Shown here in pieces: positions 24,974-53,890 of a stretch of DNA of 64,000 nt. Position numbers and translations under genes: made by a program. How positions within the stretch are numbered: the stretch's first letter is position 1; each line of letters begins with the position of its first letter. The DNA is from Candidatus Geothermincolia bacterium (GTDB taxonomy: Bacteria > Actinomycetota > Geothermincolia > Fen-727 > Anoxymicrobiaceae). The notes under the pieces are model-generated. The model saw only the letters and a program-made list of their open reading frames with translations, was not told where the DNA came from and did not search any database. Location: contig JBBQKJ010000001.1 in NCBI GenBank assembly GCA_038326775.1, positions 71,510 to 135,509 of the forward strand, written 5' to 3'.

Positions 24974-25014
24974 TGAGGGGGAAGCTGGCACCTGGTGCAA
25001 AGGGGATGGTCTGT

Positions 25015-27681: not shown

Positions 27682-27695
27682 GAGGGGTGGGTAGA

Positions 27696-30359: not shown

Positions 30360-30434
30360 GGCGCCAGCATTCGGGTATTTTGGTTGAGGGCAGGACCAGA
30401 ATCGGCCTGCTGATTTGTCAAGGGGGTAGTTTCG

Positions 30435-33110: not shown

Positions 33111-33126
33111 AGGAGCTTTCCGACAC

Positions 33127-34155: not shown

Positions 34156-34165
34156 TTCTGCCGAA

Positions 34166-34762: not shown

Positions 34763-34876
34763 CGCAAAGACTTGAGAAAGTGCAAGCTGCGGAGGTCGAG
34801 CAGGATAAGCACCCTACCGGTGGTTGATTGTTTCTCCGGCCTGTTGACAGTTGCTGGAAACCATATTTACAATGGC

Positions 34877-34900
34877 GCGCATAGGGAACATACATACATG
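34877..34900. promoter_or_regulatory. 24-bp palindrome GGAACATACAT-AC-ATGTATGTTCC (11-bp arms), about 40 bp upstream of the TetR gene. Candidate TetR operator.
   Basis: Perfect inverted arms read from the sequence. The ATACAT/ATGTAT half-sites echo the GRE-promoter motif. Confidence 0.45.
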
Positions 34901-34938
34901 TATGTTCCATCCTCAACCTCAATGCACGATTGGTTGAA

Positions 34939-35674
34939 CATGAGTTCTGTCGAGAAGCGGGACCAGATTATCGCGGCCGGCGTCCGCGTATTCCCGAAGC
35001 TCGGCTATCACGGGACGACCGTCGAGGACGTCATTCGCGAAGCCGGGGTCGCGCGGGCGACTTTCTACGCTTACTTCGCGGACAAGCGCGGGCTTTTCAT
35101 CGAGATCGCCACGGGAAGAACCACACAGATCGTGCACATTCTCACTGTCGGTGTCGACTCGGTCATCGAACAATATGAAACCCTGGGGGCTGAAGCGCTC
35201 GACCAGGAAACGTTCCAGGCGCCTCTCTCCGACCTGGTGGAAGCCATATTCCGATTCGTGAGGAGTAACCGCGGGGTAACGAAGATCTTCTTCCACGACA
35301 TGGTCGGCGCGGACAAAGAGTTCACCCGCATCTTCAACGACTACCAGGAGGCGCTGATCAACCAGATGGAGCGCTTGATGGAATACGGAGTCGGCCATGG
35401 GGTGCTCAAGAAGACCGACTGCAGGAAGGCCGCGGAGTTCATAATAAGCGGGCACATGCACCTGGCCAGGAGCTTCAGCGCCGGCACCGGCAGGTACGAT
35501 GTCGAGGAGGTCGCGCGCCAGTTCATCGACTATCAGTTCAACGGTCTTATGGAGAGAAACGACCCCCCTTCAGCGGACGGCAAGAAGAAAAGCGCGGCGG
35601 CAGGGGCAGGAGCACGGGGCCAGGAGCGCCCAGGGGGCATCAACACCGGCGGAGCCCCGGAAACCCGCCGTTAG
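34939..35674 (+). CDS. TetR-family transcriptional regulator with a low-complexity basic/Ala-Gly C-terminal tail.
   Basis: N-terminal HTH: GYHGTTVEDVIREAGVARATFYAYFADKRGLF (canonical TetR_N). Start at MSSVEKRDQ; an ATG at 34921 is also possible. Confidence 0.8.
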
Positions 35675-35743: not shown

Positions 35744-36976
35744 ATGAGATACCAGGAATTGTTCCCCGTTCCGATCGAGTGGCTTCAGGATTCTGACAGG
35801 TCGATGGTCGAGACGATCTCCTTATGGGCCGAGCAGGAGGTGAAGTCGAAGCGCCTCGAGCACAAGGAAGATTACGAAGGTCTCCTGCTGCCGGCGATGC
35901 GCAAGCTCTTTTTAGACATCGGCCTCCAGTCCATGATGCTCCCCGAGGAGCTGGGCGGCGGCGGGATAGACTCGCCGGATGCCGCTGTAACGACTACCGC
36001 GGTCCTTGAGCAGGTCGCCGCGGCGGATTCAGGCATCGGGTTCCTGTTCGCCAACGCGCTCGCCCTGCAGTACGCCCTCGCGATATCGCCCAACAAGAGC
36101 GCCGAGCCCCTCAAGGAGGCGGCCCCGGTGTTCACCGGTGGCGACATCGCGCTCTGCTCGCTTGTGCTCCCCGCCTACGGCTCCGACACGAAAGAGCGCC
36201 CGCGCTATTACGGCCTGGACTACCCCGCCACGGCCGTGAAGACCGGCGCCGGTTGGGTCGTGAGCGGCGGACCGGCGCGCCCACAGTGCTGCGGCGCGAC
36301 CGCGAGCATATTCGGGGTGGTCTGCGACCTGGGCGACGGTACTCCCGGGATGCTGATAGTCCCCGCCGGCGCGAAGGGCGTGAAGAAAGGCAAGCCGTTC
36401 AAGAAGACCGGCCTGGCCGCGAGCGTGAATGCCGACGTGACCTTCAAGGATGTCAAGGTGCCGGGAAGCGCCCTGGTGCTCGAGGGGATCGAAGCGCTGC
36501 GCGCTGTGCTCTCATGGTATTACATGGCCTGCGCCGCGGTGTGTGCGGGCTCGCTGCAGACGACTCACGAGATACTCCAGGAGTGGGGCGACACCCGGGT
36601 CATAAAGGGCAAGGGCCAGGTGTTCAAGGAGAACCCGCTGGTCGCCTCCCTGATGGGTGAGATCGGTGGCAAGATGGGCACGAGCCGCCTGCTTACCTAT
36701 AACCTGGCCAGGATGCTCTCGCGCCCCGATGTCTACGGGCCCGCCGGTGCGGGCAGCCTTCACGTGTCGGCTATCTCGGCTTTCAAGCAGGTGGGACGCA
36801 TGGCCATGGAGGCCATGGACAACACGATGGAGCTCATGGCCTCCGCCGGGTACGCCACCGAGTGGAACCTCGAGCGATACTGGCGTGACGTCAAGACAGT
36901 GGAGACTTACGTGGTCCCCGAGACTGTCGCCCAGACCTGCATGGCCAGGCAGTACTTCAACCTCAAACAACTCTAA
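35744..36976 (+). CDS. Acyl-CoA dehydrogenase-fold protein, degenerate 'alpha-type', 410 aa. Paralog of 21584..22816.
   Basis: Collinear with 21584..22816 (…KRLE.KEDYEGLL.PA...L..D.GLQ..., C-terminal ERYWRDVKTVE). GAGGTGG RBS. Confidence 0.6.
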   Translation: MRYQELFPVPIEWLQDSDRSMVETISLWAEQEVKSKRLEHKEDYEGLLLPAMRKLFLDIGLQSMMLPEELGGGGIDSPDAAVTTTAVLEQVAAADSGIGFLFANALALQYALAISPNKSAEPLKEAAPVFTGGDIALCSLVLPAYGSDTKERPRYYGLDYPATAVKTGAGWVVSGGPARPQCCGATASIFGVVCDLGDGTPGMLIVPAGAKGVKKGKPFKKTGLAASVNADVTFKDVKVPGSALVLEGIEALRAVLSWYYMACAAVCAGSLQTTHEILQEWGDTRVIKGKGQVFKENPLVASLMGEIGGKMGTSRLLTYNLARMLSRPDVYGPAGAGSLHVSAISAFKQVGRMAMEAMDNTMELMASAGYATEWNLERYWRDVKTVETYVVPETVAQTCMARQYFNLKQL

Positions 36977-37030
36977 AGCCGGGACCGACCGCCGGGCTTT
37001 GCTCGGACGGCTCTCTAGCAGGAGGAGCGA

Positions 37031-38296
37031 ATGCGGACAATAGATGACTTTACCAGGCCCCTCGAGTACCTGAGCCCGCTCGACCGTTACCTCGGAGAGA
37101 TAGGCCGCAAATGGGCGGACACCGAGGTGATACCCATCAGGCGCGATTTCGACGAGGACTGGGAGCACCACAAGTTGATCGAGCCGTGCTTCAGGTCTCT
37201 CCAGGCAGAGATCGGCTTCCAGCGAATGCTGTTCCCGGAGGACCTCGGGGGCTGGGGCCTCGGCCATTCCGGGTACATGGGCACGGGCGCGGCCCGTCTT
37301 TTCGAGGAAGTCGCGAGGGCCGACTCGGGCATGGCCGTCGCGTTCGGCGTCCTCTTCTGGCCGCTGGTGATGATATGCGTAGAGCCGCATGTCAACCGGC
37401 GCCTTTGCGAGGAGTTCGCGCCGATGTTCATGGAGTCCCGCCCGGTGTTCGCCGCAAACGCGATGACCGAACCCCAGGGTGGAGCGGATATCGAGAACAT
37501 GGAGATCGTCGGTGGCAGCACCATTCAGACGACCGCGGTCCTCGAAGGCGACGAGTGGGTGATAAACGGGCATAAGCTCTGGCCCACTAACTCCGGCGGG
37601 GTGGCCGACCTTTTCGGGGTCGTATGCACCACCAACCCGGGCTCGAAAGACCCTGACGACTTAGCCTTCATATTCGTCCCCGCCAAGACCCCTGGCTGCA
37701 CCCAGGGCGGGCCTTACGAGAAGGCGGGTATGGCCGCGGACAAGAACAGCGACATCTGGTTCGACAACGTGCGGGTGCCTTCCTGGTTCCGGGCCTGTGG
37801 CCCGGGCCTCGACGCATTGTACTTCAAGGAGGTCGTCTCGCTCGGCAACCTTGGCAGTCTGGCGTTCGTCAGCGGCGCCATGATGAACGTCTGGGAGATC
37901 TTAAGGGATTTCACAAGCGAGACTACGTTCCGGGGTAAGCCGCTGAAGGAGAACGACGACGTGGCGGGGGTGCTCGCCAACTTCGCGGGTGGCGTTGACA
38001 TCATCAGGGTCCTCACTTATCAGTACGCGAGGATGCTCGACAGGCCGGACCTCTACGGGGACCGGTGGTCCGAAGAGATAGTCGCCAAGGGCAGGGCTTA
38101 TAAGTATTTCGCCTGCGACAAGGCCGTCGAGGACCTCAAGAAGGTCATGAACCTGATGGGGGCGCACGGAAGCGACCGCGCGCACGACGTGGAGAAGCAC
38201 TGGCGAGACATCAAGATAGTCCAGCTCTGGATGGGCGGCAAGCAGCTTTGCCAGATGGAGGTCGCCCGCTGGTTCTATGAATGCGAGACCCTGTGA
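37031..38296 (+). CDS. Acyl-CoA dehydrogenase family protein ('beta-type'), 421 aa. Paralog of 22833..24098.
   Basis: MRTIDDFTRPLEY... N-terminus shared with 22833. Motifs NAMTEPQGGADIEN, EWVINGHKLWPTN, GMAADKN. AGGAGGAG RBS. Confidence 0.7.
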   Translation: MRTIDDFTRPLEYLSPLDRYLGEIGRKWADTEVIPIRRDFDEDWEHHKLIEPCFRSLQAEIGFQRMLFPEDLGGWGLGHSGYMGTGAARLFEEVARADSGMAVAFGVLFWPLVMICVEPHVNRRLCEEFAPMFMESRPVFAANAMTEPQGGADIENMEIVGGSTIQTTAVLEGDEWVINGHKLWPTNSGGVADLFGVVCTTNPGSKDPDDLAFIFVPAKTPGCTQGGPYEKAGMAADKNSDIWFDNVRVPSWFRACGPGLDALYFKEVVSLGNLGSLAFVSGAMMNVWEILRDFTSETTFRGKPLKENDDVAGVLANFAGGVDIIRVLTYQYARMLDRPDLYGDRWSEEIVAKGRAYKYFACDKAVEDLKKVMNLMGAHGSDRAHDVEKHWRDIKIVQLWMGGKQLCQMEVARWFYECETL

Positions 38297-38339
38297 GTTC
38301 GCGAATGCCGGGTTGGAGACGATTCAAGGCGGTGAGGTG

Positions 38340-39044
38340 ATGGAAGAGACGTCGTTGCCGCGCAGAGGGCCGATCGAGGGCACCAGCAGGGTGGTCCGCG
38401 AGCTCCTGCGAACCCCGAGGTTCAAGAAAACGGTGAACATCCTCCTGAGCGAGCTGGACCCTGAGAACACCGGCTTGCTCGTGAAGACGCTGATGTGGGA
38501 AGACCCGGAGTTATTCCTGAGCCTGTTCGGTGCCACGCCCGATATCGCGAATGTCGCCATCAACGGGTTGCTCGAGCTGTCCCGCCAGCTGTCCAACTTC
38601 CCCCCCGGGCTTCTCGCGAGCTTCCTGTCCGTCCTGATGGAGGGGCTCGAGATGGAGAGCCTCGGCACGGCTGTCGGGAAGGTGCGGGATCTTCTGGTGG
38701 AAGTCCGCGACAGCGGAGGACAGCCGCTCGTAGATTCTCTTACAGACCTCCTCAGAAGGTTCGCCAGGGGGGCAACGGGCTTCACACCGGTTTCCGGCGC
38801 TCCCTCGGTATCGGCGGACAAGGTCGTGGACAGCGTCTTGCCAGTGCTCGCTTCGGCCGCCGCGAGATTCGGCGGGGAGGCCGCGCGCGAGGGTTCGGAG
38901 ACGAGCGCCGCGGTCAAGAAGCTGGCGGACGGCGTGAGGGATATCGCCTCCAGGAACCCCGAGTTCATGAAATCGGTCGTAGCCCCGCTGGTGGAGGCAG
39001 GCAAAGCCGCGCTGGCCGGAACGGACGCAGGGGAGGGCTCCTGA
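38340..39044 (+). CDS. Hypothetical alpha-helical protein, 234 aa, paralog of the next gene. No Cys, Ala/Leu-rich.
   Basis: GGTGAGGTG RBS then ATG. Shared block ...R.PAF.......L.....DPE....L....LWED.EL.LS..G..P.I.N.....LEL.RQ..NFP.GLL... with 39044..39643. Confidence 0.5.
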   Translation: MEETSLPRRGPIEGTSRVVRELLRTPRFKKTVNILLSELDPENTGLLVKTLMWEDPELFLSLFGATPDIANVAINGLLELSRQLSNFPPGLLASFLSVLMEGLEMESLGTAVGKVRDLLVEVRDSGGQPLVDSLTDLLRRFARGATGFTPVSGAPSVSADKVVDSVLPVLASAAARFGGEAAREGSETSAAVKKLADGVRDIASRNPEFMKSVVAPLVEAGKAALAGTDAGEGS

Positions 39045-39643
39045 TGGAAAACGCAATATTGGGGTCAGGTCAGATTTCTGCAATTGGAAAGCCGTCCCAG
39101 GCGGGGGCGGGCTCTCGAGTCCTTAGGGAGATAATAAAAACCCCCGCATTCCTGGAAATAATCAAGCTCCACGCCAAGGGCTTCGACCCCGAGTCCGCCC
39201 GCGAGTTGGTGCGCGCGTTCCTGTGGGAGGACGTGGAACTCTCGCTCAGCTTTGTGGGCACGGTCCCCGAGATAGTCAACTACCTGGCCGCCGCGGTGCT
39301 GGAACTGGGCAGGCAGATGAACAACTTCCCCGGCGGGCTCCTCGACCAGTACGTGATGCAGAGTGGCTCGGAGATCGACGTGGAGGTGCTCAAGGAGCTT
39401 CCCGGCGTCTTCGGCCCGTTGCTTGACAACATCAGGTTCAAGAAGACCGCGGCGATGGGGCTCGGCAAGGCGGTGAACGCGGGTGCCGGGTTTGTGAACC
39501 GCGCGGCCGCGAGTAACCCGCACTTCGTACGGGACGTCCTCTCGGAGGTCGACGGGCTGGAGGTTTTACGCGCGTCGTTCGCGGTGGCGCGTTCGGTAAT
39601 GAAGTGGTTCGTATCAGGTGTTTCACGTCTATTCGGCAGGTAG
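39044..39643 (+). CDS. Hypothetical alpha-helical protein, 199 aa, paralog of 38340..39044. Start overlaps the previous stop (TGATG). The first ~17 codons coincide with a partial copy of the palindromic repeat.
   Basis: Manual frame analysis. Similarity to the upstream paralog begins at ...GSRVLREIIKTP. Confidence 0.5.
   Translation: MENAILGSGQISAIGKPSQAGAGSRVLREIIKTPAFLEIIKLHAKGFDPESARELVRAFLWEDVELSLSFVGTVPEIVNYLAAAVLELGRQMNNFPGGLLDQYVMQSGSEIDVEVLKELPGVFGPLLDNIRFKKTAAMGLGKAVNAGAGFVNRAAASNPHFVRDVLSEVDGLEVLRASFAVARSVMKWFVSGVSRLFGR
39046..39095. repeat. Partial inverted copy of the palindromic repeat tail (CAATATTGGGGTCAGGTCAGATTTCTGC is the reverse complement of the GCAAGAAAGTGACCTGACCCCAATGTTACAT-type tail).
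   Basis: About 24/30 matches to the reverse complement of the tail of copy A, by eye. Confidence 0.4.
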
Positions 39644-39680
39644 TAGGCAATAGTGCCTTATCCATGTGAGGTGATGCGAG

Positions 39681-40967
39681 TTGAGCGCTAAAGAGACGGG
39701 AAAGGAAGTTATGGAGCTCTCCGGCGAGGAGAGGGCGGCGCGTTTCAAGGAAGCGTTCGCAAGCTACGATGGGAAGGCCCTGGCACAGAGCGCCAACCAG
39801 TTCTCCCTGATGATGATGGCGGCGCACGGCGAGAACCCCGACCTGGCGAGCGAGGCTTTTCCGGCCATCGAGACGGCGCTCGCCGACATAGACTTCGGCA
39901 AGATGCGTGAGGCTATCATGGCGTTGCTCGACTACGGCGGCGCGGTGGTGTCCAAAGCGCTCGAGGAGGGGCTCGCGAACCCGGTCGTGATAGCCAACCT
40001 GGTGGGAGTCCTGCCACCGCTGGCGAACAGTCTCATCGACGCGCTCGCGGTCCTGCTGGACAACCTGGACCTCCCGGCCGAGATACTGGCAAGCGCGCTG
40101 TTCAACGTCCTGAGCGCGCTCGACGCGGAGAAGCTCGGGCACGTGCTCTCGGAGATATCAAAACAACTGAACCTACTGCACGCAGGCAACTACATCTTGG
40201 GGGGCGACGAGCCGCGCCTCCGGGCGGTGTTCACCGAGTTCACAAAGAAGGTCCTTGACAACATGGACGCCGACGTAGTGGCGAAGGCCCTGGTGGCCCT
40301 TGGCGAGGACGGCGAGATAATCGCCGGAGTCCTCGTGGACCTCCTCGCGCGGGACCCGGAGCTCATCGATACCATGGCATGGGCGTCCGTGGAACTCACC
40401 AACACCGTGGCACGGGTGCTGGCGAACGCGCTGAGCCGGGTCGCGGAGTGGCCGGACGAGGTGCTCGCCGTTCTGGGCAAGGAGGGGCGCATACTCGATA
40501 CCGTGGAGATGGGTCGCGCCGCCGACTCTTTCGTGACGTATGCCTTGCGCCTCAGAGAGGCGAATCCCGGCCTGCATAGAGAGCTCTACACCCGGGCGCT
40601 CCAGCCGGTGAACACCGAGAGCGTGGAGGTTCACCTGCGGGCCGTCGCGGGCGACCTCAAGGCCGCCGCGGTCGCACACCCTGGAATCAGCAAAGCCCTG
40701 GAGCCGGAGGAGATGGGCCGGCGCGTGAACGAGATGCTGGCGGGTTTCAACAAGGCGGCGAGCCCCGCCGGGGTCAAGGAATATCTCTCGAGGGTGTTCT
40801 CGGAAATCGACTCGCGCGAGCTCGAGGTGGCCGTTCGAAACATCGCCGGCGGAGTTGTGGACGGCCTCTTCGCGAACGCACAGGCGGCAAAGTCGATATT
40901 GAAGGCTGTCGCCTCGAGCGCATGGAAGTTGACGAAAAACATGGTCGGCCTTCTCGTCAAGCGGTAA
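39681..40967 (+). CDS. Hypothetical alpha-helical protein, 428 aa, Ala/Leu-rich, no Cys, TTG start.
   Basis: ORF in co-oriented gene string between the ACAD-like and HAD/BCR genes. No recognisable motif. Confidence 0.45.
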   Translation: MSAKETGKEVMELSGEERAARFKEAFASYDGKALAQSANQFSLMMMAAHGENPDLASEAFPAIETALADIDFGKMREAIMALLDYGGAVVSKALEEGLANPVVIANLVGVLPPLANSLIDALAVLLDNLDLPAEILASALFNVLSALDAEKLGHVLSEISKQLNLLHAGNYILGGDEPRLRAVFTEFTKKVLDNMDADVVAKALVALGEDGEIIAGVLVDLLARDPELIDTMAWASVELTNTVARVLANALSRVAEWPDEVLAVLGKEGRILDTVEMGRAADSFVTYALRLREANPGLHRELYTRALQPVNTESVEVHLRAVAGDLKAAAVAHPGISKALEPEEMGRRVNEMLAGFNKAASPAGVKEYLSRVFSEIDSRELEVAVRNIAGGVVDGLFANAQAAKSILKAVASSAWKLTKNMVGLLVKR

Positions 40968-41002
40968 CGGTAGAGTCTAACCTGAGTTTTGAGGTGATTT
41001 AA

Positions 41003-42148
41003 GTGGCAAGCGTAAAAGTAGGAAGCGCCATGGAGCAGGTCATCAAGCAGTCGGAGGTCGTGGAGAACGACTTTGTCAAGAAGTGGAAAGAGGGCGGCGG
41101 CAAGGTGCTGGGGTACGCCTGCGTCACCACTCCGCCCGAGATAATCGACGCGGCGGGCATCCTGCCCTACCGCCTCAGGGCGCTCGGCAACCCCAACACG
41201 GAGATAGCCGACGCGCACCTTGCGCGATTCAACTGCAGCTTCTGCCGCTCCTGCCTGCAGCTCGGCCTGGACGGTACCTACGCGTTCCTGGACGGGTCTA
41301 TCGAGACCAACGGGTGCGACCACCTGCGGGGGATGTTCGAGAACTGGGAGTATGTCCAGCCGTCGGAGTTCTTTCACTACGTCAAGGTGCCGCACCAGGT
41401 CAATGAGGACGCGATGGTGTACTACATCGAGGAGCTCAGGCTCTTCAAGTCCGCCATCGAAGAGCACTTCGGGGTCAAGATAACCGACGAGGCGATGAAG
41501 GGCGCGATAGAGCGCCAGGAGACGATAAGGGACAAGCTGCGCGAGGTGTACGAGATGCGGATGGGCCGGAAGCCGGCGTTCACCGGCACGGAGGCACTCT
41601 CCATATTCCTGCTCGCCTCCGCGGTGCCTTACGACGACTTTATCAGGCTGGCCGAAAGCGCCATCGAGGAGCGCAGGGGAACGGGCGTGTCCGGCTACCG
41701 CGCGCGCCTGATGCTCTGCGGCGCCGCAACCGACGAGCTCGAACTCATCAACGCCATCGAGGACGTTGGCGGACTGGTCGTCACCGACGGGCTGTGCTAC
41801 GGGGCCAGGGCGTTCTGGAGCCCGGTCGACACGACCAGGGACCCGATAGAGGCGCTCGCCGACGTTTACCTCAAGGACCTGCTATGCCCCAGGATGTACG
41901 AGGACTATCCGCGGCGGCGGGATTTTGTCCTGGACGCCGTGAAGAAGTACGACGTGGACGGCGTGATGGTCATGCATAACAAGTTCTGCGACGTGCACGG
42001 CGTCGATAACGTGCAGCTCAGGCTAGATCTGGAGAAGCGCAGCATCCCCGTGCTGCAGCTCGAGAAGGAGTACGGCTCGACAGCCGACATAGGCCGCATC
42101 AGGACCAGGGTTCAGGCTTTCCTGGAGAGGATTGGTGATCAGTCATGA
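41003..42148 (+). CDS. HAD/BCR family subunit, BcrC/HgdB-like, 381 aa. An ATG at 41030 with an AGGAAG RBS is an alternative start.
   Basis: K.LGYACVTTPPEIIDAAGILPYRL and conserved Cys (CSFCRSC, NGCDHL, ...FCDVHG) typical of the beta-type dehydratase/reductase subunits. Confidence 0.7.
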   Translation: MASVKVGSAMEQVIKQSEVVENDFVKKWKEGGGKVLGYACVTTPPEIIDAAGILPYRLRALGNPNTEIADAHLARFNCSFCRSCLQLGLDGTYAFLDGSIETNGCDHLRGMFENWEYVQPSEFFHYVKVPHQVNEDAMVYYIEELRLFKSAIEEHFGVKITDEAMKGAIERQETIRDKLREVYEMRMGRKPAFTGTEALSIFLLASAVPYDDFIRLAESAIEERRGTGVSGYRARLMLCGAATDELELINAIEDVGGLVVTDGLCYGARAFWSPVDTTRDPIEALADVYLKDLLCPRMYEDYPRRRDFVLDAVKKYDVDGVMVMHNKFCDVHGVDNVQLRLDLEKRSIPVLQLEKEYGSTADIGRIRTRVQAFLERIGDQS

Positions 42149-43641
42149 ACGCTGTCACCGCTACCGCAACCCAATCGTACACCTCGGGGGGTAAGGGGCC
42201 CCAGGATTTGAAGCTCGGCCTGTTCGATCGCGTGTCCGGCCTTTTCGAGATTATCGGAAAGCTTCCAGACGTGATGAGCGACGAGGAGGTCGACGGCCTT
42301 ATGGCCGTGCTGGCTGAGGACACGCGCAAGTCGTTGAGCGCAATGCTGATACCACGCGCCCGGGAGGGCAGCATGGCGTTCATGAAGATGCTTGCCAGGT
42401 GGCTCGAGGACGCCAGGAACGCCCCGCTGGAGGGAAAGAAATCCATCCTGATTCCCTTCTGCTTTCCCCCGGAGATCATTCACTGTTTCGAAAACTCCTT
42501 TCCATTAACAAGTGAGGTGCTCTCCTCGCTGGGGGTGATAGCGCTCGAGGGACAGGGCGAGCGGTACTACGACATGGCTCTCGGCCTCGGACTGCCCGAC
42601 CACATCTGCTCGGCCAACGCCGTGGAGGTGGGGTCCATGCTGGGCAGCGACGACTTTCAGCCGCAGGCGATAGTCAGCGCCGCGGTCGGCTCCTGCGATA
42701 TCAACTCCAAGACCCACGAGCTGGTATCCAACTACTTCGGCATCCCCCTGTTCATACTGGAGAAGCCTGTGGATGGCTCCGAGCGTGGCCGCGCGCAGTA
42801 TCAGAAGAACTTCGACAGGCTGGTCCGCGAGCTCGAGGAGTACCTCGGGGAGGAGCTTACGGATGACATGCTGCGGCGGACCTGCGAGAAGGTCAACAAG
42901 GCAAACAGGCTGATGGCAGAGCTGTGGGACCTGCACAAGGCGGTTCCAGACCCGGTGCCCAACCTGTTCTCTCTCTACTCATACGCGGCCAGGTTTGCCA
43001 TGTGGGGCACGGACCTGGCCATCGAGAGTATGAGGACCCTTGTCGACGTTTCCAAAAGGCGCTTGAAGGAGGGGGCTTACCCTGCCGACAGCGAGGTCGC
43101 CCGCTGCTTCCTGACCTATACCAGCTACTACTTCGACCTGGCGGGGCTTTTCAACTGGATGGAGGAACGGGGTTACACTTACCTCGGTGACGGGCTCGGC
43201 CTGCTATTCCCAGGTGTCATAGACACCTCTTCGCGCGAAAGCATGCTCTGGGGGATGGCCGAGGAGGCATGGAACATGCCGATGACCAGGCAGGTGGGCG
43301 GAGAATCGATGTCAATGTGCTGGCTGGAGGACGCGCTCTACGCGGCAAAGGATCTCGGCGCCGACTGCGCGATCTACTCAGGCCACCACTCCTGCAAGCA
43401 GACCTGGAGTGTGGCCTCGATCCTGCGCACGGAGTTGATGAAGCGGGCGGGCGTGCCCATGCTCGCCCTGCAGGGCGACTCCTGGCTCAAGCGGACCACT
43501 CCCATAACAGTCATACAGCAGGAGATAGACGAGTTCATCAAGAACGTGGTATTGCCGAAGAGCGGGGCCAAGAGGAAGTTGCGCAGGCGGGGGGTCGGGG
43601 CCGCGGGCACCGCGAGCACAGCGGAAACCACGAGCGCTTGA
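42145..43641 (+). CDS. HAD/BCR family subunit, HgdA/BcrB-like, 498 aa. Start overlaps the previous stop (ATGA).
   Basis: Paralogous to 20090..21538 and 43655..45058 (SILIPFCFPPEIIHCFEN, GLPDHICSANAVE, SGHHSCKQTWSV). Confidence 0.75.
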   Translation: MNAVTATATQSYTSGGKGPQDLKLGLFDRVSGLFEIIGKLPDVMSDEEVDGLMAVLAEDTRKSLSAMLIPRAREGSMAFMKMLARWLEDARNAPLEGKKSILIPFCFPPEIIHCFENSFPLTSEVLSSLGVIALEGQGERYYDMALGLGLPDHICSANAVEVGSMLGSDDFQPQAIVSAAVGSCDINSKTHELVSNYFGIPLFILEKPVDGSERGRAQYQKNFDRLVRELEEYLGEELTDDMLRRTCEKVNKANRLMAELWDLHKAVPDPVPNLFSLYSYAARFAMWGTDLAIESMRTLVDVSKRRLKEGAYPADSEVARCFLTYTSYYFDLAGLFNWMEERGYTYLGDGLGLLFPGVIDTSSRESMLWGMAEEAWNMPMTRQVGGESMSMCWLEDALYAAKDLGADCAIYSGHHSCKQTWSVASILRTELMKRAGVPMLALQGDSWLKRTTPITVIQQEIDEFIKNVVLPKSGAKRKLRRRGVGAAGTASTAETTSA

Positions 43642-43654
43642 GAGAGGAGAAGCA

Positions 43655-45058
43655 ATGCCTGTGATAGCCAGCACCATCCCCGGCTCGGGACTCTTCGACA
43701 GGGTCCAGCAGCTCTTCGAGGTTGTTCTCAAGGTACCCGACGAGATGAGCCACGAGGAGGCCCGGGGTATCATCGACGTGATGCCCCCGGACGTTGCCGC
43801 CACGCTCGAGGCTGTCCTTGAAGACCGGATCCGGCGCGCCGGGATCATCTTCCTGAAGATGGTCGGGCAGTGGCTGAAGAACGCCAGGGAGGCTAAGGCC
43901 GCGGGAAAGAAGGTCATCCTCGTGCCGTTCAACTTCGTTCCCGAGCTCGTACACGCGTTCGAGAACGCGGTGCCGCTGACCAGCGAGATACTCTCCACGC
44001 TGGCGGGCAGCGCCACCGAGGGCAAGGGGCACCGCTACTGGGATTACGCGATGGGCCTCGGCATCCCCGACCACCTGTGCTCCGCGAGCGCCATCGAGCT
44101 GGGCTCGATGCTGACCGGCGTGGACTTCGAGGCGGATGCCATCATCTCCTGCACCGCCGGCGCATGCGACGCCAACTCGAAGATCCACGAGTTCGTCGCC
44201 AACTACATGGGCATCCCGCAGTTCGTGGTGGAGAAGCCGGTGGACGACACAGAGCGCGGCATAGAGCAGTACAAGAAGAACTTCTTCAGAATGGTCGAGC
44301 AGCTCGAGGAGTTCGTGGGGGAGACCATCAAGGAAGAGCGCCTGCGCGAGGTCGTCGATTACTGCAACCGCTCCGCGGAGCTACACTACCAGCTCTGGGA
44401 GCTCAAGAAGAACGCCCCCTGCCCGGTGCCGAACATATACAACATGTTCATCTACGCCGCCCGCTTCACGCAGTGGGGCAGGCCCGAGTCGCTGAGGACG
44501 ATGGAAGTCATGGTGGAGGAGGCTAAAAAGCGGCTGGAGGCGGGCGATTACCCGGCGGAAAAGGAGCTCGCGCGCGTCGGATGGCTGTACACGAGCTACT
44601 ACATAGACTTCGCCGGGCTCTTCAACTGGATGGAGGAGCAGGGATACACGCACCTCTTCGACGTGCTCGACCTCTTCTTCCCGGAACCGATCTCGACGGA
44701 GAGCAGGCAGACGATGCTCGAGGGCATCTGCGAGGCGGCCAGGACGTTTCCCATGACCCGCCAGATGGGTGCCGAGTCGATGTCGGTGGCGTGGATAGAT
44801 GACGCCATCAGCATGGCGAAGATGCTGGACGCGAACTGCGCCATCTACTGCGGTCACCACGCCTGCAAGCAGACCTGGAGCGTCATCTCCATAGTCCAGA
44901 AGGAGCTGATGGACCGCATAGGGGCGCCGGTGCTGTCCCTTCAGGGCGACGCCTGGCTGAGCGGAATGACCCCGGTGTCGACCCTGCAGGAAAACATCGA
45001 CGAGTTCATGCGTAACGTTGTGGTCAAGAAGCGAAAGGTCAAAACACGAAAAAGGTAA
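43655..45058 (+). CDS. HAD/BCR family subunit, HgdA/BcrB-like, 467 aa.
   Basis: Paralogous blocks (VILVPFNFVPELVHAFEN, GIPDHLCSASAIE, CGHHACKQTWSV). Confidence 0.75.
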   Translation: MPVIASTIPGSGLFDRVQQLFEVVLKVPDEMSHEEARGIIDVMPPDVAATLEAVLEDRIRRAGIIFLKMVGQWLKNAREAKAAGKKVILVPFNFVPELVHAFENAVPLTSEILSTLAGSATEGKGHRYWDYAMGLGIPDHLCSASAIELGSMLTGVDFEADAIISCTAGACDANSKIHEFVANYMGIPQFVVEKPVDDTERGIEQYKKNFFRMVEQLEEFVGETIKEERLREVVDYCNRSAELHYQLWELKKNAPCPVPNIYNMFIYAARFTQWGRPESLRTMEVMVEEAKKRLEAGDYPAEKELARVGWLYTSYYIDFAGLFNWMEEQGYTHLFDVLDLFFPEPISTESRQTMLEGICEAARTFPMTRQMGAESMSVAWIDDAISMAKMLDANCAIYCGHHACKQTWSVISIVQKELMDRIGAPVLSLQGDAWLSGMTPVSTLQENIDEFMRNVVVKKRKVKTRKR

Positions 45059-45059
45059 A

Positions 45060-45090
45060 GTGGGGTCAAGCCACTTTCTTGTTCTCAGCA
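45060..45090. repeat. Short partial copy of the palindromic repeat tail (GTGGGGTCAAGCCACTTTCTTG, similar to GGGGTCAGGTCACTTTCTTGC).
   Basis: About 19/21 identity by eye. Intergenic between the HAD/BCR subunit and the activator genes. Confidence 0.35.
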
Positions 45091-45141
45091 CTACCGCGAC
45101 AGCGACCGAAGCGCTATGACCAAAAAAGAAAGGGAGATTGA

Positions 45142-45960
45142 ATGTCGTTTGCTGGAATCGACGTGGGCTCGCTGACCGCGCAGGCGGTCCTGATAGAGGA
45201 CGGCCGCACCCCGTTACTCAAGACGATAGGCGTAAAGCTCCTCTCGAAAAGCATAAGGGTGAAACCCAACCCTTTGGATTCTGCCCGCACCGTGATGGGG
45301 CAACTCCTCGATGAGCATAGCCTGTCGTGGGGTGACATCACCTACTGCGTGAGCACCGGGTACGGACGCGACAAGGTCCAGGGCGAAGGGCTGGCCCAGG
45401 AGAACGTGAGCGAGATATCCTGCCACGGGATAGGTGCTTTCACCATCGCCCCGCAGGTCCGCACCATAATCGACATCGGTGGCCAGGACGCCAAGGTCAT
45501 CCGCGTCAACGAGAGCGGAGACCTGGTCAACTTCGTCATGAACGACAAGTGCGCCGCGGGCACCGGCCGCTTCCTGGAGGTCATGAGCCGCACCCTGGGC
45601 GTCTCGTTCGAAGACCTGGGCGGCATCGCGCTCAGGGCGCGGGGGAAGATCGAGCTCAGCTCGAGGTGCAGCATCTTCGCCGAGACCGAAGTCCTGCACT
45701 ATCTTCAGAAGGGTTTCGACAAGGCCGACCTGGCGGCCGGGACGTGCAAGTCCATGGCGGACAGGGTGATGGCCCTGGTGCGACGCGTGGGCTGGGAGAA
45801 AGAGGTCATGATGACAGGTGGCGTGGCCAAGAACGTCGCGGTCAAGGCGGAGCTGGAGAGGGTGCTCAACCTGAGGATGTTCGTCCCGCACCTCGACCCG
45901 CAACTGATGGGCGCTTTCGGCGCCGCCGTGCTGGCGCAGAAGGCAGGTGCTGCCCTGTGA
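45142..45960 (+). CDS. CoA-substrate-specific enzyme activase (HgdC/BcrAD/BadFG-type ASKHA ATPase), 272 aa.
   Basis: N-terminal ...GIDVGS...AVL... ; DKCAAGTGRFLE and the two-Cys [4Fe-4S]-bridging pattern of HgdC-like activators. Confidence 0.8.
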   Translation: MSFAGIDVGSLTAQAVLIEDGRTPLLKTIGVKLLSKSIRVKPNPLDSARTVMGQLLDEHSLSWGDITYCVSTGYGRDKVQGEGLAQENVSEISCHGIGAFTIAPQVRTIIDIGGQDAKVIRVNESGDLVNFVMNDKCAAGTGRFLEVMSRTLGVSFEDLGGIALRARGKIELSSRCSIFAETEVLHYLQKGFDKADLAAGTCKSMADRVMALVRRVGWEKEVMMTGGVAKNVAVKAELERVLNLRMFVPHLDPQLMGAFGAAVLAQKAGAAL

Positions 45961-45965
45961 AGACA

Positions 45966-46739
45966 ATGGGGATAGACATCGGCAACCTGCTCTCGAAGGT
46001 GGTCATCCTTGATGGGGACAAGTTGGTCGCGAGCGGAATAATGGACACCACCGGGAACGTGGCGAGCGAGATCGACATGCTGGTGAGCTCCGTCCTGCTG
46101 GACGCGGGCTTCGGGCTCGAAGGGCTGGATGCGCGCGCCGCCACCGGTGGCGGGGCCGAACTGCTGAGGGGCCTGGACTTCACCGAGGACGAGGTGACCT
46201 GCGTGGCGGCGGCGGGCGCTTACCTCCTGCCCGAGATAAACATGATAGTGCACGTCGGCGGCCAGAGCATCGCCTCGATTCTCATCAACGAGGACGGCGA
46301 CGTGGTCAACTTCATGCGCAACGACAAGTGCGCCTCGGGGTCCGGGCGCTTCCTGGAGGTCATGAGCCACGCTATTGGCGTGGGCATCGACGACATCGAT
46401 GGCGTGGTGGAGGGGGCCGAAAAGCCGGTTTCCATAAGCAGCCAGTGTGGTGTTTTCGCGGAGAGCGAGGTCATCACTCATGTTAACGACGGCGAGAAGC
46501 CGGCGGATATTGTCGCCGGTCTGTGCGACTCGGTGGCGAGCATCGTGTCCGCGCAGGCCCGCAAATTCACCGAGGGGGACAAGTATACCCTTACCGGTGG
46601 TGTAGCGAGGATAGACGCAGTCAGGGGACGTATAACGCAGAAGATGAACGGGACGTTCTACGAGTTTCCCCATGACCCGAGGCTGGCGGCCGCCGTCGGC
46701 GCGGCCCTGCTCGCCGGCATGGAAGAAGAAGAGGAGTAA
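45966..46739 (+). CDS. Second CoA-substrate-specific enzyme activase (HgdC-type ATPase), 257 aa. The 396-aa track ORF is an out-of-context upstream extension.
   Basis: MGIDIGNLLSKVVIL..., DKCASGSGRFLE. ATG at 45966 immediately after the stop of the first activase. Confidence 0.8.
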   Translation: MGIDIGNLLSKVVILDGDKLVASGIMDTTGNVASEIDMLVSSVLLDAGFGLEGLDARAATGGGAELLRGLDFTEDEVTCVAAAGAYLLPEINMIVHVGGQSIASILINEDGDVVNFMRNDKCASGSGRFLEVMSHAIGVGIDDIDGVVEGAEKPVSISSQCGVFAESEVITHVNDGEKPADIVAGLCDSVASIVSAQARKFTEGDKYTLTGGVARIDAVRGRITQKMNGTFYEFPHDPRLAAAVGAALLAGMEEEEE

Positions 46740-46785
46740 GAGACCGCTTTTGGGAGCTTTCAGCCCCACGAAGCATTGAGACGAC

Positions 46786-47502
46786 ATGGCCTTGTTCGAT
46801 GAACAGCTTGGCGAAGTAAGACGGATTCTCGCCGACTGGCGGGAAGGAGCCGGAGCGCGCGAGTTCAGCGCCGGGGAGCGGGCACCCTGGCCCGAAGGGC
46901 AGAGCCTCGTGCTGGAGGAGGACACAGCCCTCGAGCTCGGCAACCCCTCTGTCGCGTCCCTGTCTCTTCTGCTCTGGAGCGAGGGAGGCGACGTCGAGGA
47001 CGGGCGTATTACTCTCGTGGGGCCCGACGTACCTGAGGCGAAAGAGCGCAACGTGCCTTTCGCGCAGGTTGTCATAGCGGGTGGCTCCTTCGCAAGCGAG
47101 TACGACTCCTACCGCGACGCTCGGGACGCCGTTTACGATACCAGGCTCCATGGCTTCTCGGTGCGAACGATGCCCAGCAGGCAGAGCATCTGGTGCAGGG
47201 TGGCGCGCGTTGCCAGGGAGGAGGGTTTTTCCCTGGTGGATCTGGGGGCGGCCTTTATCGAGGCGCTCAAGAGCCTGGACGAGGTCTCGGCCGCACAGGT
47301 CGTCTTCGTGACCGCGAGCGTCGAGGACGTGAAGAAGCTGTCGGGCGCCGCGGCGGGCGCCCAGAGGATAGTCGACGCTATGATGAAGATGTACCAGGAG
47401 GAGAACTTCGACTGTGAGACCTGCGAGTACCAGGAGGTCTGCGACACCGTGATGGACCTGAAGATGATAAGGAAGAAGCTGACCGAAGGAAAGGTGCCCT
47501 GA
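46786..47502 (+). CDS. Hypothetical protein, 238 aa, with C-terminal Cys cluster FDCETCEYQEVCD. Stop overlaps the start of the CooC-like gene.
   Basis: ORF in operon position. No family recognised. Confidence 0.45.
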   Translation: MALFDEQLGEVRRILADWREGAGAREFSAGERAPWPEGQSLVLEEDTALELGNPSVASLSLLLWSEGGDVEDGRITLVGPDVPEAKERNVPFAQVVIAGGSFASEYDSYRDARDAVYDTRLHGFSVRTMPSRQSIWCRVARVAREEGFSLVDLGAAFIEALKSLDEVSAAQVVFVTASVEDVKKLSGAAAGAQRIVDAMMKMYQEENFDCETCEYQEVCDTVMDLKMIRKKLTEGKVP

Positions 47503-48245
47503 TGATCCTGTCGGTGTGCGGTAAGGGAGGCGTCGGCAAGACCACCGTTTCCGCGGTTGCGGCGCAGGCTCTCTCGGCCAGGGATGGAGTGCGCGCGCTA
47601 ATCGTCGACGCCGACCCGGCGGGCGGGCTTGGCATGGCGCTCGGGCTCACCCCTCGAAAGACGCTCAACGATGTTCGAAAGGAGATAATCGAGGAGGTCA
47701 AAGCTGGAGGGCGCGACGAGAAGGACCTGGCCGTCTCGCTCGATTACCTGCTCGCCGAAGCGCTTACGGAAAAGGGCAACCTGGCGTTCCTGTCCATCGG
47801 GCGGCCCGAGGACGTGGGCTGCTACTGCAAGGTGAACGTCATCCTCAAGGACGCAATCGAAGGCCTGGCGGGCCGCTTCGACGCGACCGTCATAGACGCC
47901 GAAGCGGGTATCGAGCAGGTCAACCGCAAGGTGATGAGCCCGGTCGATTACGTTTTGCTCGTGTCGGACACCTCGGCCAAGGCGGTCAGGGTCGCGGAGA
48001 CCATAAAGGGCGTCGCGGACAGCATGATCGGCGGCGAGGATGCCGGCCTGCTGGTCAACAGGGCGCGCGAAGGGCGCGAGGCCGAGAAGATTCGCATGGG
48101 GACCTCGCTCGAGGTGCTGGGCTGGATACCGGAGGACGACACCATCCGCCGGTTCGACGGCGAGGAGATATCCTTCCTCGAGCTGCCGGAGTGCCCCGCC
48201 CGCGAGGCCATCACCGCCGCTCTCGAGAAGACCGGCCTGCTATAA
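47502..48245 (+). CDS. CooC/AcsF-family P-loop ATPase (MinD/ParA superfamily), a putative metallocentre (Ni) insertion/maturation ATPase, 247 aa.
   Basis: Deviant Walker A GKGGVGKTT at the N-terminus plus the CooC-type CxC motif (EDVGCYCKVN) at the expected position. Confidence 0.7.
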   Translation: MILSVCGKGGVGKTTVSAVAAQALSARDGVRALIVDADPAGGLGMALGLTPRKTLNDVRKEIIEEVKAGGRDEKDLAVSLDYLLAEALTEKGNLAFLSIGRPEDVGCYCKVNVILKDAIEGLAGRFDATVIDAEAGIEQVNRKVMSPVDYVLLVSDTSAKAVRVAETIKGVADSMIGGEDAGLLVNRAREGREAEKIRMGTSLEVLGWIPEDDTIRRFDGEEISFLELPECPAREAITAALEKTGLL

Positions 48246-48383
48246 TTCATCTTGGGGTCAGACACCCTGACATGAATTTTCAGCGGCATCCGGATGTCTC
48301 GGATACAAATTCATGTCAGGGTACCTGACCCCAGGGTGAGAATGCACAAAAGTGACCTGACCCCAATGTTGCATTATGGATGA
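48246..48383. repeat. Palindromic intergenic repeat element, copy B (about 138 bp). Its tail reaches into the annotated start of the metallophosphoesterase gene.
   Basis: Alignment with copy A: ATTCAT..TGGGGTCAGACACC(T/C)TGACATGAATTTT ... inverted arm ... AAAGTGACCTGACCCCAATGTT(A/G)CAT...ATAGCG. Confidence 0.6.
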
Positions 48384-49488: not shown

Positions 49489-49585
49489 ACGGTCGGGGTT
49501 GCGTCGCTCACCCCCGCTTTGAACTTGTTAAACGCGAGCCCGATGTATAATAGCGGCACGACTGACCAAAGTGATGGGAGGAGTC

Positions 49586-52500: not shown

Positions 52501-52606
52501 CTTCAACGCGGGAGAGACCGTACCCGGGACCTGGGATGTCTCGACCAGGGTCGAGAGCGACAAACCGGTCATCGCCGAGCGGGCGATGTACGGCAGCCCC
52601 AAATGA
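49586..52606 (+). CDS. Large secreted repeat protein, 1006 aa: signal peptide, about 13 beta-propeller-type blades of ~47 aa (HVWAVG.GGTILF.NG..W..Q..GTT..LN.VSAVD.T, BNR/Ycf48-like), then four tandem 102-aa repeats (RTWGTDSIGA.AP...WYLAEGSTG.GFETW.LVQNP....A.V...YMT..G.V.GP....PARSR.....A.TVP..WDVST.V..NKPV..ER.MYG).
   Basis: GGGAGGAG RBS before the ATG at 49586. Signal peptide ...AFALAPAGALAADG. Repeats counted by eye in the translation; near-identical DNA stretches occur between C-terminal repeat units. Confidence 0.75.
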   Translation: MKRLPGKALSSTIIFLIAAVLMAFALAPAGALAADGYVWSWQNPLPQGNDLFSISAADTAHVWAVGAGGTILFNNGDYWVRQTVGTTGTLNDVLAVDPTHVWAVGAGGTILFYNGTSWTAQAGGTINSLNGLAAVDATHVWAVGSGGTVLFFNGSSWTAQVTGTTNALISASAVDATHAWAVGSGGTVIFYNGTTWTGQAGGVSDGWINGVSAVDATHAWAVGYRQVSHTLSYFILFFNGSSWVTQATGEDCWLTDVSAVDASNAWAVGSDGKALFFKGTTWAEQMTGSSETLHSVLALNATHVWAAGNAGEILSYDGAWNRQTAGESFDILGMSAFDQNQAWAVGASGDILHYNGSAWTAQPSGASGPYFDVFALDSEHVWAVGEGGKVAFWNGAAWALQSSGTSSTLFAVTAADENHVWAVGASGTVRFSNGSAWSGQTSGTTQWLNGVSAADSKHVWAVGSGKTLLYYNGASWKGTDTGAFNGLNSVSALDATHAWAVGPGGFIMFINGPGTWSQQASGTTADLFAVAAVSAGRVWAVGDGGVARYYDGNTWTAQNTGSVNNLGGLTAPDGGHAWVGGDDGNILLGQVVLPPTSRTWGTGSIAAAAPATDWFLAEGSTGPGFETWVLVQNPGDVTATVELDYMTSTGQVDGPTLNIPARSRSTVNVAATVPNSWDVSTKVGSNKPVIGERSMYGGDRTWGTDSIGASAPAKTWYLAEGSTGTGFETWVLVQNPNDTSANVEITYMTGSGPVSGPRVNLPARTRRTFDVADTVPGKFDVSTMVKANKPVVVERSMYGSGRTWGTDSIGAAAPSGLWYLAEGSTGPGFETWILVQNPNGLPAEVTLTYMTPAGAVAQKVDKVPANARKSFDVGRVVPGAWEVSTKVEANRPVVAERAMYGNNRVWAHDSIGASAPAKTWYLAEGSTGTGFETWILVQNPGGDPAEVRVDYLTTAGEVKGPAVMVPARSRMNFNAGETVPGTWDVSTRVESDKPVIAERAMYGSPK

Positions 52607-53777: not shown

Positions 53778-53890
53778 GAATCTTATGGTGGTAACCGGGG
53801 ATTCCTAATATGATTCAGGCAGAGCACCCGTGTGGGGCTCGGGCCGCGAATCTTTTTGCGCCAGGGCGCATGAAGCTGGAGGTGGATGTT

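Follow-up and report, generated by a model that had tools for sequence, protein, structure and literature searches.

A 64,000-nucleotide (nt) stretch of the genome of a Candidatus Geothermincolia bacterium (contig JBBQKJ010000001.1, positions 71,510 to 135,509 of the forward strand; hereafter the window, in whose numbering all positions are given) contains seven genes at 41003-48245, all on the plus strand. They raise the question of why a gene for a CooC-type ATPase, a nickel insertase known from the maturation of carbon monoxide dehydrogenase (CODH), lies behind genes for an enzyme of the benzoyl-coenzyme A (CoA) reductase (BCR) type. ATP-driven enzymes of the BCR, 2-hydroxyacyl-CoA dehydratase (HAD), and double-cubane cluster protein (DCCP) groups reach the lowest redox potentials known in biology. 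To our knowledge, they are thought to require only HGD-D subunits, an HgdC-type ATPase, and a ferredoxin. The cassette described here adds two components borrowed from the ancient system that CODH forms with acetyl-CoA synthase (ACS). Either a new nickel or iron-sulfur cofactor protein serves these reductases, or CooC-type ATPases have clients beyond CODH/ACS.

An earlier reading of the DNA sequence (the original prediction) had proposed that the CooC-type ATPase inserts metal into an unusual cluster in the catalytic subunit of the reductase. We arrive at a different answer, in which a Bzd-type acyl-CoA reductase is combined with a dedicated accessory pair from the CODH/ACS machinery, namely an ACS-like protein and the CooC-like ATPase. 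We lean toward this explanation as a whole. Its architectural layer, as read from homology, is very probably correct, and the exact role that we propose for the ACS-like protein, which draws on analogy, is tentative.

The reductase core

The first three of the seven genes encode proteins of the HGD-D family (Pfam PF06050, cutoff 28 bits). These are an N-like subunit of 381 amino acids (aa) and BzdN type (41003..42148; 296 bits), O-like subunit 1 (498 aa; 42145..43641; 158 bits), and its tandem paralog, O-like subunit 2 (467 aa; 43655..45058; 148 bits). Two HgdC-type ATPases follow: ATPase 1 (272 aa; 45142..45960), which scores 200 bits against BcrAD_BadFG and 231 bits against TIGR00241, and ATPase 2 (257 aa, starting MGIDIGN; 45966..46739), with 133 and 173 bits, respectively. 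The cutoff of TIGR00241 (acyl-CoA dehydratase activase) is 125 bits. The Pfam and NCBIfam profile matches confirm the three HgdAB-like proteins and two HgdC-sized ATPases recognized in the original prediction; of the former, one is BzdN-like and two are three-cysteine O-like proteins.

The best PDB match of the N-like subunit is BzdN (8s02_B; 189 bits, E-value 1e-54), followed by HadC, DCCP, and MbdN. In the structure of BzdNO, the ligands of the [8Fe-9S] double cubane in BzdN are Cys36, Cys73, Cys100, Cys263, Cys293, and Cys327 (PMC11971306). In the alignment with 8s02_B, residues C40, C78, C105, C265, C295, and C329 of the N-like subunit map one-to-one onto these ligands, and manual mapping on the same alignment also finds equivalents of BzdN Arg53, Arg267, and His330. 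C40 is kept in 42 of 43 homologs from related loci, the other five cysteines in all 43; the aligned HadC has Ala at the position of C265. From this pattern the N-like subunit is predicted to be the carrier of an [8Fe-9S] double cubane. The original prediction had a double cubane in mind for the catalytic subunit; such a site is indeed predicted, but its six cysteines lie in the N-like protein, which does not bind substrate, and not in the catalytic O-like proteins.

BzdO uses Cys95, Cys128, and Cys380 to hold an open-site [4Fe-4S] cluster, with the catalytic residues Glu65 and His131 beside the cluster-bound water (PMC11971306). The sole conserved cysteines of the O-like proteins are C155, C184, and C417 (54, 53, and 54 of 54 homologs), which align with three DCCP cysteines; their match to BzdO is one of count and pattern, BzdO itself having given no significant direct alignment. 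The O-like subunits are predicted to hold an open-site [4Fe-4S] cluster, which would be the site of acyl-CoA binding. Residue E124, near-invariant (51/54) and located about 30 residues ahead of the first cysteine, as in BzdO, may correspond to Glu65. Beyond these cluster residues, we saw no additional conserved Cys or His in the N-like and O-like proteins.

The two O-like subunits are 52% identical. In a neighbor-joining tree, O-like duplications occurred independently in Actinomycetota, Smithella, Chloroflexota, and Jordarchaeia, which speaks for catalytic subunits that are alternatives to each other and against a heterotrimer fixed long ago. By analogy, either paralog can probably act as the partner in catalysis, the two serving related substrates. 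A fixed N-O1-O2 heterotrimer with two conserved O-like orthologous groups was considered and rejected, the tree showing lineage-specific duplications.

ATPase 1 finds HgdC (1hux; 203 bits), HadI, and MbdQ as its best PDB matches. The two ATPases are 32% identical, and each keeps both cysteine motifs (NDKCAAGTGRF and SSRCSIFAE in ATPase 1), in which the cysteines are presumably cluster ligands, as in HgdC.

Against the NCBIfam equivalog models, the best-matching subunits scored 182 bits for BzdN (cutoff 454), 17-21 bits for BzdO (cutoff about 450), and 193 bits for BzdQ (cutoff 380). The N-like subunit scored 194 bits against the DCCP equivalog NF040772 (cutoff 350), and the Had equivalogs gave 149 bits (cutoff 700) and 29-49 bits (cutoff 750). 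All subunits are thus far under the Bzd, Bcr, Had, and DCCP equivalog cutoffs, in agreement with the earlier view that the enzyme is atypical for the HAD/BCR family. By these similarities, we class the core as an N-O-P-Q reductase of the Bzd type that has an additional O-like copy and represents a distinct subfamily. We do not file it as a benzoyl-CoA reductase because the equivalog cutoffs are failed and because no benzoyl-CoA pathway or ferredoxin genes were found in the cassette. Neither the operon in the window nor the five annotated contigs described below contain genes for a ferredoxin or the dienoyl-CoA pathway.

The current names "benzoyl-CoA reductase", "acetyl-CoA synthase beta subunit", and "CO dehydrogenase maturation factor" are misleading for the genes of this cassette and could distort metabolic reconstructions from subsurface metagenome-assembled genomes (MAGs). 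As a separate observation, calls of "class I benzoyl-CoA reductase (bzdNOPQ)" in deep-sea Chloroflexi (PMC5736913) may include such cassettes and could be over-interpreted.

A fourth HGD-D gene is present elsewhere in the window (20045-21538). It encodes an O-like protein of 497 aa, which shares 45-47% identity with O-like subunits 1 and 2, and is followed by a second pair of genes for acyl-CoA dehydrogenase (ACAD)-like proteins (to 24098), with no N-like or ATPase gene beside it. Locus L031 similarly has an ACAD pair, an O-like gene, and an ACS-like gene, and no N-like gene. The combination of an O-like gene with an ACAD pair looks like a recurrent unit, possibly one that makes use of a shared N/P/Q module.

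A stand-alone ACS A2 domain

The gene directly after the ATPases (46786..47502) encodes a protein of 238 aa that matches Pfam CdhC (PF03598) with 47 bits (cutoff 24) and the NCBIfam ACS model with 53 bits (cutoff 800). A profile built from its family matches ACS chains only in the PDB. The AlphaFold 2 model of the protein has a pLDDT (predicted local distance difference test score) of 87, and in a Foldseek search with this model the top 23 matches were all ACS chains, with a template modeling (TM) score of about 0.6. The matched region of ACS is the A2 (CoA-binding) domain. A database clustered at 90% identity contains 114 homologs. Among 1.84 billion representatives, we found 262 clusters at an E-value of at most 1e-30; the best 150 of these clusters have lengths of 177-308 aa and include no fusions. 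The ACS-like protein belongs to a stand-alone family of proteins of about 240 aa.

The cysteine motif of this protein, FDCETCEYQEVCD, occupies residues 208-220 of 238; the protein had been described as ending in this motif, but a tail of 18 residues follows it. C210 and C213 align with both cysteines of the A-cluster motif YsCllCQ of ACS, and C219 follows after a shorter spacer. We take the ACS cysteines to be Cys506 and Cys509 in the Moorella thermoacetica numbering, and Cys509, the second cysteine of the CxxC and the one aligned with C213, to bridge to the proximal nickel. The chain ends 19 residues past C219 and lacks the A3 domain, the A1 domain, and the Cys-Gly-Cys nickel site.

C210, C213, and C219 are kept in all 77 aligned family members. 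A fourth cysteine is found at position 137 in 64 of the 77, and these have no cysteine just upstream of C210. Eleven members instead have Ser or Thr at 137 and a cysteine about seven residues ahead of C210; in the remaining two, neither position is occupied, and by inspection the cysteine is apparently in the C-terminal tail. The protein in the window has four cysteines in total: C137, C210, C213, and C219. This complementary swapping of the fourth cysteine points to a four-cysteine metal site in the family. We think that the site is most likely an A-cluster-like [4Fe-4S] cubane, although it may be a mononuclear metal site.

The invariant residue W136 falls, in the alignment, on the Trp of the TWVRIS motif of ACS. 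In the ACS of Clostridium autoethanogenum, Trp405 of the A2 domain stacks on the adenine of acetyl-CoA, and Arg383 and His386 form a catalytic pair (bioRxiv 10.1101/2024.08.05.606187). With the alignment anchored on Arg383, His386, and Trp405, we identify W136 as the counterpart of the adenine-stacking Trp405. The equivalents of Arg383 and His386 are both Ala.

These features bear on the possibility that the ACS-like protein is itself catalytic, with a Ni or Ni-Fe-S site for which the CooC-like ATPase would be the maturase and to which the CxC cysteines of this ATPase would perhaps contribute in trans. The protein would then carry out thioester, C-S, or C-C chemistry on the acyl-CoA, with electrons supplied by the ATP-driven module. 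Its descent from ACS, the retained CoA-binding Trp, and the alignment of C213 with the second cysteine of the ACS CxxC would fit this role, as would the dedicated CooC-type partner and the occurrence of the pair next to an acyl-CoA synthetase without a reductase (see below). In contrast, the replacement of the Arg383/His386 pair by Ala, the lack of the Cys-Gly-Cys nickel site and of the A3 domain, and the total of only four cysteines in the whole protein speak against catalysis, and we judge it very unlikely.

Conservation of the cassette

A pattern scan with one genome per species yielded 60 loci encoding the ACS-like protein, all in MAGs, and the proteins of the window were searched by BLASTP against the six-frame open reading frames of these loci. 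Of all the loci considered here, including the contigs named below, three were seeded from the CooC-like protein and the others were found through the ACS-like one. Genes of the N-like, O-like, and ATPase types are all located within 6 kilobases (kb) of the ACS-like gene in 31 of the 38 loci that have at least 5 kb of upstream flank; an O-like partner is present in 32 of these 38. A CooC-like gene is present, usually directly downstream, in 44 of the 55 loci whose downstream flank is long enough. Taken together, these counts answer in the affirmative the question of whether this gene is conserved beside HAD/BCR-type genes. Most loci contain one or two O-like copies (two loci have three) and usually one or two ATPase genes.

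The hosts belong to seven bacterial phyla and include Actinomycetota, Thermodesulfobacteriota (including Smithella and Syntrophales), Chloroflexota (Dehalococcoidia), Bacillota, Bacteroidota, Lernaellota, and one Bacteriovoracaceae MAG; the archaeal hosts are Asgard Jordarchaeia. Five further contigs with Pfam annotation (L061-L065) contain the same N-O-P-Q-ACSlike-CooClike block between unrelated flanks; the search had started from the ACS-like protein for some of them and from the CooC-like protein for others. No CODH or full-length ACS was found among the Pfam-annotated genes of these five contigs, nor was either seen among the window genes that were scanned. Genes for the corrinoid iron-sulfur protein or a methyltransferase are likewise not present with the ACS-like/CooC-like pair.

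The pair could in principle be a passenger, such as the remnant of a CODH/ACS maturation operon, and the Pfam and JGI labels "CdhC" and "CO dehydrogenase maturation factor" would suggest as much. Against this stand the synteny with N, O, and ATPase genes in seven bacterial phyla and one archaeal class between unrelated flanks, the finding of no CODH or full-length ACS in the five contigs or among the scanned window genes, and operon gaps of at most 83 nt. The synteny across 60 genome loci and five annotated contigs effectively refutes an unrelated downstream operon, and we consider the passenger explanation exceedingly improbable. The original prediction had counted both genes as part of the reductase cassette; their conservation across phyla bears this out, and a CODH/ACS operon nearby, which would have pointed the other way, was looked for and not found.

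In eight Actinomycetota loci (L010, L013-L018, and L020), five of them with at least 5 kb of upstream flank, the ACS-like/CooC-like pair is present and no N-like or O-like gene was found, even with hidden Markov models (HMMs). In the two that were scanned (L010 and L018), the pair is located beside genes for an amine-oxidase-like flavoprotein and an acyl-CoA synthetase on the opposite strand. We take these eight loci to mean that the pair can stand as a unit of its own; in our view they do not weaken its association with the reductase.

Given its recurrence in dozens of unrelated genomes, the gene combination goes far beyond what chance would produce. Only uncultured organisms are known to have the cassette to date, among which it is widespread and horizontally shared. 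In the literature that we searched, no paper connects HAD, BCR, or DCCP operons to CooC or CdhC-like genes, and a review of double-cubane proteins does not describe the combination of CooC/CdhC-like genes with a reductase. A paper on isoprene reductase was considered as a prior description and rejected; it deals with HypA/HypB and another enzyme. Both the accessory pair and the family of A2-only ACS proteins appear to be undescribed, and the reductase itself is of a recognizable type.

The CooC-like ATPase and its client

The last gene (47502..48245) encodes a P-loop ATPase of 247 aa of the MinD/ParA class and CooC/AcsF type, with a CxC motif at C107/C109. Its best PDB match is CooC1 (3kje; E-value 2e-13), and in this alignment its GCYCK falls on the metal-binding CYC motif of CooC1 (Cys112/Cys114). 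The deviant Walker A motif GKGGxGKT and the motif GC[YF]C are invariant in all 47 neighboring CooC-like homologs. JGI labels homologs of the protein "CO dehydrogenase maturation factor". The CooC/AcsF signature noted in the original prediction therefore holds up on alignment. By sequence the protein is a member of the CooC/AcsF group; by genomic setting it is not, no CODH or full-length ACS having been seen among the scanned window genes or in the five annotated contigs.

We think it somewhat probable that the client of this ATPase is the ACS-like protein and not an HGD-D subunit, because the two genes overlap by 1 nt (the start of the CooC-like gene with the stop of the ACS-like gene), because the pair survives apart from the reductase, and because the ACS-like protein has a four-cysteine site of its own. 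The claim that the ATPase is the maturase of a reductase subunit is thereby not upheld; its closest conserved partner is the truncated ACS-like protein. BzdNO assembled its [8Fe-9S] cluster in Escherichia coli without any CooC (PMC11971306), so the double cubane gives no reason for a dedicated insertase. The idea of an unusual HGD-D metallocluster in need of one is not supported on the same point, the cluster type being already known in class I BCR.

It could still be argued that the target of the CooC-like ATPase is an HGD-D cluster, either the double cubane or the catalytic cluster, which would receive nickel or another heterometal, and that the ACS-like protein is only an adaptor. The conservation of the CooC-like gene within the reductase cassette and its invariant CxC motif are in favor of this, as is the complex eight-iron site of the N-like subunit. 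The six-cysteine pattern, however, is identical to that of BzdN, whose cluster is all-iron and was formed in E. coli as just described. Moreover, the N-like and O-like proteins have no further conserved Cys or His, and upon separation the CooC-like gene stays with the ACS-like gene and not with N or O; the ACS-like protein also offers a conserved four-cysteine site of its own. We therefore regard insertion into the reductase itself as unlikely.

A role of the pair in the assembly or repair of iron-sulfur clusters was also weighed. The CooC-like protein would be a carrier in the style of Mrp, NBP35, or ApbC and the ACS-like protein a scaffold, both serving the oxygen-labile clusters of the reductase without being part of the working enzyme. 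The CooC-like protein weakly matches ParA/NUBPL, MrpORP, and NifH-type models, a four-cysteine site with a movable ligand would suit a transient [4Fe-4S] cluster, and the gene overlap suggests coupled translation. Yet the protein has the CxC motif of CooC where Mrp/NBP35 carriers have CxxC, CooC1 is the solved structure that it matches best, and the double cubane of BzdNO formed in E. coli without such a system; we know of no other BCR, HAD, or DCCP enzyme that needs a dedicated one. A mere scaffold would also hardly account for the invariance of the CoA-stacking Trp and the conservation of the A2 surface. We assign this alternative a low probability.

Proposed role of the accessory pair

By analogy with BCR and HAD, the two different ATPases would pair as a heterodimer and inject electrons of low potential as they hydrolyze ATP. 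The CooC-type ATPase would dimerize on ATP, bind metal at its CxC motif, and load or complete the metal center of the ACS-like protein in the way that AcsF serves ACS. The matured ACS-like protein would then be a stoichiometric partner of the reductase. It would most likely function as a dedicated iron-sulfur electron-entry or adaptor protein, and it may also hold the CoA moiety of the acyl-CoA. In bzd clusters, bzdM is the ferredoxin, and we take the place immediately behind the ATPase genes to be that of bzdM in bzd operons and of fdx in bcr operons. Electron entry is suggested because a ferredoxin gene is missing from the cassette and its position in the operon is taken by the ACS-like gene; the possible holding of acyl-CoA is suggested because the CoA-stacking Trp is retained.

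A more far-reaching reading is that an ACS-derived protein, metallated with Ni or Ni-Fe-S by a CooC-type ATPase, is an obligatory third component of a widespread family of ATP-driven double-cubane reductases. The metal site could be a four-cysteine cubane of the [Ni-3Fe-4S] type, or it could be completed in trans by the CxC cysteines of the ATPase, and the ACS-like protein would take part in acyl-CoA chemistry or in ultra-low-potential electron delivery. If true, this reading would establish a functional connection, the first of its kind, between the BCR/HAD radical-enzyme superfamily and the machinery for nickel insertion of CODH/ACS. We find this reading rather doubtful.

Several points count against our explanation of a Bzd-type reductase with a dedicated accessory pair. 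The O-like subunits have no His three residues past the second cysteine, where BzdO has one, and position 187 is mostly Asn; Birch-type arene reduction is thus not established, and a dehydratase-type reaction is possible. In 11 of the 55 ACS-like loci, no CooC-like gene is present within 6 kb (two of these have it about 7 kb away), and in several loci the ACS-like gene adjoins reductase genes with no CooC-like gene nearby. Over the cysteine motif of the ACS-like protein, the pLDDT of the AlphaFold 2 model drops to 54-66. The ACS-like protein lacks the Cys-Gly-Cys site, so the cargo of a CooC-type nickel insertase is unclear. Finally, the argument from the ferredoxin's position is one of positional analogy.

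Operon structure and neighboring genes

The operon starts upstream of the seven genes, at 35744. We read 35744-48245 as a single 12-gene operon because all gaps in this region are at most 83 nt and three of the junctions are overlaps. The G+C content of the window is about 62%. A scan for promoters and terminators gave counts no higher than the shuffled expectation; a weak hairpin at 48252-48270 is the only one found 3' of the CooC-like stop. A gene for a TetR-family regulator (34772..35674, plus strand; Pfam TetR_N and TetR_C) precedes the operon and is its probable regulator. A TetR gene also precedes the cassette in L062 and is located near it in L026 and L032.

The first five genes of the operon, all on the plus strand, encode two ACAD-like proteins and three helical proteins, X1 to X3. 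ACAD-like protein a (410 aa; 35744..36976), encoded by the first gene, matches the N- and C-terminal Pfam domains of Acyl-CoA_dh; its middle domain is unmatched, and it is far under all NCBIfam cutoffs. In ACAD-like protein b (421 aa; 37031..38296), all three ACAD Pfam domains are matched. Protein b is 57-64% identical to its homologs in the Thermodesulfobacteriota and Smithella loci, and it reads WMGG where the canonical ACAD 2dvl reads YEG. The pair (35744-38296) looks non-canonical, without the canonical catalytic Glu, and protein b is unusually conserved across phyla.

The gene for X1 (38337..39044) has an uncertain start codon, either GTG at 38337 or ATG at 38340. The ATG of X2 (39044..39643), a paralog of X1 (42% identity over 91 aa, E-value 2e-22), overlaps the X1 stop by 1 nt, and X3 (428 aa; 39681..40967) is located between X2 and the N-like gene. 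Pfam and NCBIfam searches gave no family match for X1, X2, or X3.

These upstream genes recur with the cassette. The ACAD-like pair and two or three unannotated proteins precede the block in L061, L062, and L063, as in the window, and ACAD-like protein a recurs upstream of the cassette in L001, L002, L007, L026, L031, L061, L062, and L063. Other phyla also have X1 in the interval from the ACAD pair to the N-like gene, and the X1-X3 set is found in this interval in Lernaellota, Smithella, and other loci. X3 has weak homologs at the same position in L001, L002, L005, L007, L027, L036, and L049; unannotated genes occupy this position in L061-L063.

Upstream of the TetR gene, the region 24916-34762 contains three tandem glycyl radical enzymes of the PFL2 family (921, 895, and 891 aa), an activase (33127-34155), and a DUF4125 protein. 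The three enzymes are under all cutoffs for characterized enzymes, and no small subunits are present. They were considered as part of the cassette and rejected, since no homolog occurs in any related locus; they represent local context only. The ACAD-like pair, the three glycyl radical enzymes, and CoA ligases in the neighborhood suggest an acyl-CoA pathway.

Three other genes in the window, for a DUF362 protein with a ferredoxin domain (52620-53777), a DUF2804 protein (16183-17232), and a thiamine pyrophosphate-dependent enzyme (53810-55552), each have counterparts near the cassette in some unrelated loci (among L015, L064, L065, L001, L054, and L056); a loose association with the function of the cassette is possible. 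An HpaB-family protein of 480 aa (7466-8908) is encoded near an AMP-binding CoA ligase (4216-5793, minus strand). We take the HpaB family to include 4-hydroxybutyryl-CoA dehydratase; these two genes represent further acyl-CoA radical or flavin chemistry nearby. The gene at 49571-52606 encodes a probable secreted protein of 1011 aa with about 20 "WAVG" repeats followed by DUF5719-like repeats. A heliorhodopsin gene (1473-2267; Pfam PF18761, 324 bits) is present in this MAG of an apparently anaerobic actinomycetote.

Comparison with known systems

The closest known system is the class I BCR of Azoarcus/Aromatoleum (BzdNOPQ; 8S02, 8S1T, 8S2R). The two share an N subunit with the six ligand cysteines of the [8Fe-9S] cluster, two different HgdC-type ATPases with both cysteine motifs, and the gene order N-O-P-Q. 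By count and pattern, the three conserved cysteines of the O-like subunits would also fit an open-site [4Fe-4S] cluster as in BzdO, and the conserved acidic residue E124 may be the counterpart of Glu65. However, the O-like subunits in the window carry an N-terminal extension of about 100 residues, the O-like gene of the cassette is often duplicated, and the His after the second cysteine is missing. The cassette has no BzdM ferredoxin or dienoyl-CoA pathway genes, whereas it adds the ACS-like protein, the CooC-like ATPase, the ACAD-like pair, and three helical X proteins.

DCCP and DCCP-R (6ENO, 7YYL) have in common with the N-like subunit the six-cysteine double-cubane motif in an HGD-D fold and the ATP-dependent HgdC-type electron donor. 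DCCP forms a homodimer, and small molecules are its substrates at the double cubane; in contrast, the cassette co-encodes a three-cysteine O-like partner, as in BCR. The dehydratases HgdAB/HgdC and HadBC/HadI likewise combine HGD-D subunits with an HgdC-type activator (HgdC being the best PDB match of ATPase 1), and the neighboring ACAD-like pair recalls their dehydratase/enoyl-CoA reductase pathways. These dehydratases have alpha and beta HGD-D subunits with a single [4Fe-4S] cluster each and one homodimeric activator; the small subunit in the window, by comparison, has the full six-cysteine pattern and is accompanied by two different ATPases, and no genes for a CoA-transferase or a 2-hydroxyacid dehydrogenase are present with the cassette.

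For the accessory pair, the comparison is with AcsB/CdhC and AcsF and with CODH and CooC. The A2 fold, the CoA-stacking Trp, and the first two cysteines of the A-cluster cubane are shared, and the pairing of the genes for a client and its CxC insertase is preserved. In comparison with ACS, the ACS-like protein has neither the A1 and A3 domains nor the Cys-Gly-Cys site and the Arg/His pair, and the two genes are embedded in a BCR-type operon.

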